DNA of 11,060 nucleotides. Source: Candidatus Thorarchaeota archaeon (GTDB lineage: Archaea > Asgardarchaeota > Thorarchaeia > Thorarchaeales > Thorarchaeaceae). Under the pieces are notes generated by a model. It saw nothing but the letters and a program-made list of their open reading frames with translations. It was not told the DNA's origin and did not search any database. Each line of letters opens with the position of its first letter. The stretch's first letter is position 1. A program made the position numbers and the translations under genes. The DNA is taken from the NCBI GenBank assembly GCA_016839605.1, contig JAEOTX010000021.1, forward strand, positions 1-11,060, written 5' to 3'. Below, one piece after another: positions 5,087 to 6,424 of this stretch.

Positions 5087-6424
5087 ATGTCAAAAGAGAA
5101 GAAGAAAACAACTACCAAGAAGAGCACAAAGACCTCCAAGTCAACTACAAAGAAGCCTGCAGCTAAGAAGAAACCTGCAGCCAAAAAGCCTGCTGCAAAG
5201 AAGACCACAAAAACCGCTCCAAAACCAAAGGCTAAGACGGTCTCTGATGCAATAGAGAAGCACATGGTGAAGCGTTTCGCAAAGATGCGTGAAGAACGCA
5301 GACTTCCTCCCAAGGTCATGTTGGAGCTAGAAACCAAGATCAGAGAGCAGGATGTTACGAAGAAGGAGTTCGATGACATATGCGACAACGTAGTTGCCTC
5401 ATACGAGATGTCATTGGTAGAACCTGGTGAGGCAGTCGGTACAGTAGCTGCTCAAAGTATCGGTGAGCCAGGAACCCAGATGACTCTAAGAACCTTCCAC
5501 TATGCAGGAGTTGCAGAACTGAGCGTGACTCAGGGTCTTCCGCGTCTCATAGAGATTGTTGATGCTCGGAATAACCCAAGTACACCTACAATGAAGATAC
5601 ACTTGAAGAAGGATATTGCTGGAGACCGCAATGAAGCTCGAAGAATCGCCCGCGACATCGAGATGGTCATTGTTGAGAGTGTAGCAAGCAACGTATCTAT
5701 TGATCTTCTACGACAAGCAATTGACATCAGGCTGGACCCTGAACTGATGGAAGACAAGGCTCTCTCAGTCGAACACGTTGCCGAAGCCATTCAGGCCAAG
5801 ATCAAGACCAAGGGCGAAGTTGAGGCAGGGGATGGCGTAATTTTCGTCTATCCGGCAAATGACACACTTGCTGATCTTCAAAGACTCAGCGAGAAGATTC
5901 GAGAGGTACGTGTGAAGGGTATCAATGACGTCACTCATGTGGTCATTCGAAAGGAGTCTGATGGTTATGTTCTCTACACTGAAGGCTCCAATCTTCAAGA
6001 CGCTCTTGAGATTGTTGGGATTAATCCACACATGGTATACACGAACAACCTCAAGGAAATCAACCAAGTACTTGGTATCGAGGCTACGCGGAACGCCATA
6101 ATCCAAGAGGCGATGAGCGTGCTAAACGAGCAAGGAATGGATGTAGACGTCCGGCATATCATCCTAGTAGCTGATATGATGACTGCTGACGGTGCAATTC
6201 GCCAGATTGGCAGGCATGGAATTTCTGGATCCAAAAACAGCGCTCTGGCACGAGCAGCTTTTGAGGTGACAATCAAACATCTACTTGGAGCAGGAATTGC
6301 TGGGACCAAAGACCCTCTCAGAGGCATCACGGAGAATGTAATTCTCGGTCAGTTGATACCCCTTGGCACAGGGGCAATAGATCTTCTAATGACCCCTCAG
6401 CCAATCGCAGGCAAGAAACGATAG
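5087..6424 (+). CDS. rpoA2: DNA-directed RNA polymerase subunit A'' (Rpo1C) with Lys-rich N-terminal extension
   Basis: [29 protein letters not shown] (trigger loop), [32 protein letters not shown]. Strong SD AGGAGG at 5072-5077 ahead of ATG 5087. Confidence 0.98.
5150..5203 (+). repeat. Three imperfect in-frame KKPAA coding repeats in the rpoA2 5' extension
   Basis: AAG AAG CCT GCA GCT / (AAG) AAG AAA CCT GCA GCC / AAA AAG CCT GCT GCA / AAG AAG. The copies differ only at synonymous positions. Confidence 0.9.

Follow-up and report, generated by a model that had tools for sequence, protein, structure and literature searches.

The window, by which we mean the whole stretch of DNA analyzed here, is 11,060 nucleotides long and constitutes one entire contig of a 3.08-Mb Thorarchaeote genome that is 80% complete. 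Its plus strand carries the 3' part of rpoB, truncated by the contig start (1-2415; Pfam Rpb2 domains 1-7), followed by rpoA' (2415-5072; Pfam Rpb1_1-5), which encodes an Rpo1N of 885 amino acids with an ordinary C-terminus that lacks an extension, and by rpoA'' (5087-6424; TIGR02389), which encodes an Rpo1C of 445 amino acids. Downstream, on the same strand, lie the genes for eL30 (6493-6786), nusA (6797-7225), uS12 (7567-8046), and uS7 (8047-8715), with a small hydrophobic ORF of 75 amino acids (7241-7468) between nusA and uS12. An EamA transporter gene (8828-9730, plus strand) follows uS7, in the place where EF-2 often lies; two adjacent small hydrophobic ORFs on the minus strand (9766-10008 and 10119-10466) are closely alike and correspond to a small membrane protein duplicated in tandem; and a gene near the end of the contig (10571-10978, plus strand) encodes a 135-residue protein with two SH3 domains (SH3_2, E 5e-11). 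The DNA of the window is found in marine sediment metagenomes that are possibly its source, and one metagenomic contig that spans positions 4700 to 6500 without a difference or gap may be that very source and hence is not independent; in the RNA runs, of which small shares were sampled, only short contigs of relatives were recovered.

The rpoA'' product is readily identified. The complete ORF scores 480.2 bits against the TIGR02389 (RpoA2) profile, above the cut-off of 420.65, and the gene is a separate one, situated after rpoA' and before eL30-nusA, as is characteristic of archaeal A'' subunits. The nearest named A'' homologues, 95-97% identical, come from Candidatus Thorarchaeota. The predicted fold is that of Rpo1C (VIA-align Z 31.4, rmsd 6.4, 383 aligned residues against Pyrococcus furiosus 8cro_C), with the structural alignment extending over residues 55-442 of the model and 2-391 of the experimental chain. 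The core (5243-6424; TIGR02389, structural alignment) comprises the foot remnant, trigger loop, jaw, and clamp core, with a short basic C-end, so that, apart from its N-terminal tail, the protein is an ordinary Rpo1C.

The Lys-rich start reported in the initial annotation is borne out by the residue counts (K21 T10 A8 P5 S4 M1 E1 for residues 1-50), and at the genomic Lys frequency of 4.7%, the probability of at least 21 Lys among 50 residues is about 3e-15. Judged by composition, AlphaFold pLDDT, and homologues, the disordered Lys/Thr/Ala/Ser/Pro-rich segment comprises residues 1-52 (5087-5242), carries a net charge of +20, and ends where the first conserved helix (residues 54-70) begins. Three KKPAA copies start at residues 22, 28, and 33 (5150-5164, 5168-5182, and 5183-5197) and, as previously noted, differ only synonymously; all differences are at third codon positions. 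Homologous tails contain 25-44% Lys, with a net charge of +9 to +34, a Lys to Arg ratio of 42:1 (762:18), and only 15 hydrophobic or aromatic residues out of 2105, and all 40 of them open with M/V-S/P-K. KKPAA, in contrast, occurs in 12 of the 40 and is a local feature, S/TPKK is present in two, and neither Tyr nor the YSPTSPS heptad appears in any. What is conserved is the composition and not the KKPAA motif. A preference for Lys over Arg is typical of such low-complexity tails.

Several features of the sequence indicate that the tail is very probably translated, starting from Met1. The strong AGGAGG Shine-Dalgarno (SD) sequence overlaps the rpoA' stop codon (5072-5077) and is followed by the ATG after 9 nt. 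An SD-like word precedes the start of the tail in 39 of 39 cases and the position equivalent to Met60 (5264-5266) in none of 39, and three relatives have Ile at that position. The reading frame of the tails contains no stops, compared to 19 and 123 in the other two frames, and the 11 indels that separate close pairs all have lengths divisible by three. The pooled dN/dS ratio amounts to about 0.29 in the tail and 0.047 in the core, at similar pS (0.33 and 0.35, respectively), the value for the tail being approximate because amino-acid alignment of low-complexity sequence biases dN downwards. With these alignment caveats, the comparison demonstrates purifying selection that acts on the length range of the tail, its positive charge, and the use of Lys over Arg, rather than on the sequence as such; the original claim that the tail is translated and selected as a protein thus appears to be well founded. 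A start at Met60 or later, which had been named among the possible refutations of that claim, is very unlikely in view of the SD counts, and the notion that the tail stretch is untranslated or an assembly artefact, to which four database entries that begin at or after Met60 lend some color (P0020-22 and P0101), is very improbable given the open frame, the in-frame indels, and the presence of a tail of 34-75 residues in the remaining 117 of 121 close homologues, which come from many samples. In practical terms, such short gene calls deprive some database entries of the tail. A role of the A-rich codons as a translation ramp was also considered and dropped because similar tails are found at C-termini as well (uL18, HdrA). 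The spacing between the rpoA' stop and the rpoA'' start is mostly 11-15 nt in the tailed genera and in most of the tail-less ones, where translation begins about nine codons upstream of the Met60 position. This equal spacing, together with the common M/V-S/P-K opening, shows that the tail is an insertion behind the ancestral start codon rather than a captured spacer.

We searched 87 Thorarchaeia genomes, in 74 of which the native 5' end of rpoA'' could be read. The tail, ranging from 19 to 75 amino acids, is present in all 13 genomes of the genus to which the window belongs, in all 24 of a second genus, and in all five of a third one, and is absent from each of 32 genomes in 14 other Thorarchaeia genera as well as from eight other Asgard genomes with a split gene. 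Absence from close relatives, likewise named as a possible refutation, is accordingly excluded by 42 of 42 genomes. A tailed copy in one additional genome (L046 in G031) was left out as a likely contaminant because the same genome also encodes a tail-less copy like that of its genus. In the tree, tail-less lineages branch first and at least two changes are forced, and the grouping of all tailed sequences in a single clade was rejected (p-AU 0.017; LG+G4, one gene); the larger tree was obtained by a quick search only. Judging from these sequences, the tail is a derived feature within Thorarchaeia, not a class-wide one, that was either gained repeatedly or gained and then lost, and it is accessory, given that 14 related genera do without it.

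The statement that archaeal Rpo1C proteins usually have no such tail turns out to be too strong. N-terminal additions to Rpo1C exist in Thermoplasmatota, Undinarchaeales, and other lineages, including helix-hairpin-helix (HhH) domains (HHH_5, E 5e-19 to 1e-30), related extended proteins that are named Thermoplasmatota, and, in Undinarchaeales, an Hc2-like Lys repeat; among distant Rpo1C, P0138, P0140, P0159, P0177, P0156, P0162, P0150, and P0216 bear HhH arms, larger domains, or repeats rich in Lys at the N-terminus. All these additions share the attachment site, the free N-terminus at the A'/A'' split, and several are also rich in Lys, but their origins are probably independent, and many contain folded HhH or other domains that the Thorarchaeal tail lacks. 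In the literature searched, in which subscription papers are sparsely covered, we found no description of the tail or of N-terminal additions to Rpo1C, and the words "extension" and "lysine" are absent from a 2026 survey of archaeal RNA polymerase (RNAP) subunits (PMC13257274). The tail is real and apparently undescribed.

The predicted disorder of the tail is also supported by structural modeling. With 45 close homologues, AlphaFold yielded a mean pLDDT of 48.9 that did not separate tail from core, and 74 diverse alignment rows were used instead; in the resulting model, residues 1-50 have pLDDT values of 36-50, whereas the Rpo1C core is mostly at 70-98 up to about residue 420. There is no secondary structure in residues 1-53, the remainder is Rpo1C, and the alignment with experimentally solved archaeal Rpo1C chains begins at model residue 51-55. 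Residue 49 of the model corresponds, in the structural alignment, to about residue 975 of yeast Rpb1. This position falls within what we take to be the foot (about 871-1058), the first half of which is presumably missing in archaea, at the A'/A'' split. The predicted anchor of the tail is thus at the foot, on the exterior of the enzyme and not at the DNA cleft. For a 52-residue coil, we estimate an end-to-end distance of about 50 Å and a contour length of 187 Å, and on this model, the tail would have to be partly extended to contact the template DNA. From the foot, at the base of the enzyme, a 100-Å helix of Ctr9 extends as far as Rpb5, where the downstream DNA enters (PMC7111264).

One of the closest parallels to such an arrangement is Rpo13 of Sulfolobales and Desulfurococcales, which likewise provides RNAP with a disordered Lys-rich tail in only some lineages (PMC2675907, PMC3479171). 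In its own system, this tail binds dsDNA without sequence specificity (PMC2675907, PMC3479171), the Lys-rich C-tail being required for binding (PMC3479171), and the visible C-end of Rpo13 is located about 7 Å from the modeled DNA (PMC2675907). By contrast, Rpo13 is a separate subunit with a helix-turn-helix core, whereas the Thorarchaeal tail is part of Rpo1C, joined to it at the foot, measures two to three times the length of the Rpo13 tail, and has no predicted fold. The Rpo13 core (PF12136) had no match in this 80% complete genome in a profile search for which the Sulfolobus control was positive. The Rpo5 subunit encoded here is long (186 amino acids; L184:68-628, plus strand) and contains an extra N-terminal Mrr_cat-like domain, so that the Rpo13 niche is possibly already filled. 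The gene next after that of Rpo5 is unrelated and lies on the opposite strand; Rpo5 is hence not encoded directly upstream of rpoB. The Lys repeats of actinobacterial TopA, HupS/HupB, Ku, FtsK, and sigma HrdB offer a second parallel: they, too, consist of blocks of one to three Lys spaced by Ala, Thr, or Pro in variable copy number, and are added to an ordinary enzyme and to many proteins per lineage, about a third of which bind nucleic acids (PMC5714199). Compared to these, the tail described here is N-terminal, archaeal, richer in Thr and Ser, devoid of an acidic tip, and encoded in a genome of moderate GC content. By analogy, the tail might work like that of Rpo13 or like the actinobacterial Lys repeats, while being a member of neither family.

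The proposed kinship with linker histone H1 holds only at the level of composition, that is, Lys/Ala/Pro/Thr/Ser content, Lys over Arg, and disorder. The globular part is missing, the PF00538 winged-helix domain having no Pfam match in the Rpo1C protein, S/TPKK is confined to the two tails mentioned above, and the Pfam and NCBIfam profiles for H1-like (HC2) proteins do not match this tail. Bacterial Hc2 and AlgP are stand-alone proteins consisting mostly of Lys/Ala repeats, in contrast to the fused 52-residue segment found here. The H1 likeness is compositional convergence. One homologue (P0099) has a precomputed match to PF07382.

The interpretation of the tail is complicated by the finding that Rpo1C is not alone. 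A scan of the ORFs of this genome yielded 23 proteins, Rpo1C included, with Lys/Thr/Ala/Ser/Pro stretches that form tails or linkers (the others, about 22, at loci L091-L110 of G000). Among the 21 tail-bearing proteins that were scanned against Pfam, six are nucleic-acid-associated (Rpo1C, uL18, eL32, SRP19, Topo VI-A, and an OB-fold protein), ten are not (an FKBP PPIase, HdrA-MvhD, MvhD, a Ras-like GTPase, LarC, two HEAT proteins, two VWA proteins, and one WD40/TPR protein), and five have no Pfam match. The share of nucleic-acid binders resembles that among the Lys-repeat proteins of Streptomyces (175 of 554). The tails of FKBP and uL18 are class-wide in Thorarchaeia, including the genera with a tail-less Rpo1C. 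The FKBP tail contains a median of 15 Lys in genomes with a tailed Rpo1C and seven in the others, and tail charge per residue correlates between Rpo1C and FKBP (rho 0.84, n=14), although both statistics overstate the association because kin genomes are not independent. The C-end of Rpo1C (6410-6421 in the window, and its homologues) is more basic as well, with a mean net charge of +4.3 in tailed genomes and +0.5 in the rest. From this co-variation and the more basic C-end, we conclude that a genome-level factor shapes these tails. A role specific to the polymerase, as originally envisaged, is weakened by the tails on some 22 other proteins, many of which do not bind nucleic acids, and by their co-varying charge.

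With about even confidence, we favor the view that the tail is an unspecific electrostatic nucleic-acid tether that raises the dwell time or the local concentration of the enzyme. As the sequences show, the tail is a polycation, disordered by prediction, that is translated and was placed immediately after the first residues of Rpo1C. The indel pattern and the tails on other proteins show that it lengthened through in-frame slippage of A-rich codons, in lineages prone to tailing free protein ends, and, subject to the alignment caveats above, selection maintains its length range, positive charge, and preference for Lys over Arg. Hanging from the foot at the exterior of the enzyme, it would most likely bind the backbone of nearby DNA, of nascent RNA, or of the trailing ribosome without sequence preference, and such binding might increase the local concentration and dwell time of the enzyme on the nucleoid. 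Apart from the precedent of Rpo13, this view draws on the Lys repeats of TopA, which stabilize the TopA-DNA complex and confer processivity (PMC5714199), on the enrichment of Lys-rich low-complexity regions in prokaryotic DNA-binding proteins (PMC6821194), on the HhH domains and the Hc2-like repeat borne by other archaea at this end of Rpo1C, on the HhH domain in Rpo6 of this genome, and on the consistency of the Rpo1C tail in all 42 genomes of the three genera, whereas the long tail of MvhD is found in this genome only. Counting against it are the 10 of 21 tail-bearing proteins that are not nucleic-acid-associated, the co-variation of tail charge with FKBP, the anchor at the foot with an estimated reach of about 50 Å, compared to the roughly 7 Å that separate the end of Rpo13 from modeled DNA, and the long Rpo5 that may already occupy the Rpo13 niche. 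If the tether is real, the end at the A'/A'' split would be a docking site to which unspecific grips, Lys tails or HhH domains, were added repeatedly, the Thorarchaeia sister genera with and without the tail would present a natural comparison, and the tail would join Rpo13 as a second archaeal example in which RNAP is tuned by a disordered basic segment.

A less probable, yet substantial, alternative is that we are dealing with a lineage-wide physico-chemical trait without a polymerase-specific job, in which Rpo1C is just one more free end and the tails serve solubility, charge balance, or generic localization, or else are tolerated slippage products. The broad range of tailed proteins, from the redox enzymes HdrA-MvhD and MvhD to the GTPase, LarC, HEAT, VWA, and WD40 proteins, the presence of FKBP and uL18 tails where Rpo1C has none, the difference in FKBP Lys content together with the charge co-variation, and the more basic C-end of Rpo1C all fit this possibility. 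Nevertheless, the tail was never lost within the three genera, its dN/dS and Lys to Arg ratio speak against pure neutrality, and a chain with a charge of +20 on a DNA-bound enzyme should touch nucleic acid whatever its origin; moreover, in Streptomyces, 175 of the 554 Lys-repeat proteins are annotated as DNA-binding, and yet the TopA repeats are functional. The trait and the tether are not mutually exclusive, and why Lys tails co-vary among unrelated proteins within a single Asgard class might be the more interesting question. A bolder extension, which we regard as improbable, is that the tails are a lineage-wide Lys-rich address tag, switchable by Lys modification, that gathers RNAP, ribosomal proteins, PPIase, GTPase, and redox enzymes in a nucleic-acid-rich compartment or condensate, with the RNAP arm being regulated and constituting a forerunner-analogue of eukaryotic disordered tails.

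Slightly more doubtful still is a regulatory tail switched by acetylation or methylation of Lys or by phosphorylation of Ser and Thr, acting as a functional analogue of the CTD of RNA polymerase II or helping the enzyme through histone chromatin. Like the tail, the CTD is a disordered low-complexity extension with modifiable residues on the equivalent of the largest subunit, and the near-exclusive use of Lys over Arg, the abundance of Ser and Thr, the presence of a histone and two sirtuins in the genome, and the methylation of a lysine in the Rpo13 tail of Sulfolobus are all compatible with regulation. The analogy finds no support beyond composition, however: the tail is strongly basic, sits at the N-terminus of Rpo1C, on the foot, instead of the C-terminus, and lacks Tyr, the heptad, or any conserved repeat unit, nor is there a conserved motif that a reader could recognize. 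Sirtuins are widespread, being present in 10 of 14 control genomes, the Lys bias is of the typical kind, and the sole histone found has no tail. The gene for this histone is located at L183:661-897 (minus strand), and those for the sirtuins at L185 and L186.

The least likely of the functional alternatives, to which we would assign little weight, is that an acidic surface on another protein binds the tail and thereby helps the split large subunit to assemble; candidates would be the acidic tip of Rpo6, a factor, or a chaperone. The N-terminal tip of Rpo6 is indeed acidic in most Thorarchaeia, and the proteome as a whole is acidic as well (D+E 13%), but the charge of the Rpo6 N-region does not differ between tailed and tail-less genomes (p 0.39), and the C-ends of Rpo1N are alike in the two groups. 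Rpo6 itself is about 225 amino acids long and, in all family members examined, consists of an acidic tip, an HhH domain (HHH_5, E 2e-10), and a basic linker (L209:1351-2034, minus strand; L187-L214), whereas that of the sister family has the acidic extension only. HhH-bearing Rpo6 is found in tailed and tail-less genera alike. The N-region of Rpo6 has been called a helix-loop-helix fragment (PMC13257274).

The rpoA'' gene of Thorarchaeia shows additional anomalies. In three genomes, the TLRT and FHYAG codons are separated by an insert of 30 nt that contains a stop and forms a hairpin of about -12.8 kcal/mol (L015:1752-1782; L075:7992-8022; and L081, minus strand, 952-982 on that strand); by its sequence, this insert is probably a short intron of the archaeal type within a protein-coding gene. 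Genomes G017 and G045 each possess, 5-7 kb upstream of a second copy, an incomplete rpoA'' that comprises the 5' part and ends at TLRT (L029; L075:545-928 and 7591-7995; L090), and a similar break is seen at the end of a contig in a third genome (G050). Although no integrase was found, the arrangement looks like the result of an element that integrated in rpoA'' and supplied a new 5' end. In G045, the gap between the copies contains an IS110 transposase and an ORF of 1313 amino acids without a Pfam match, and both copies of rpoA'' encode a Lys-rich tail.
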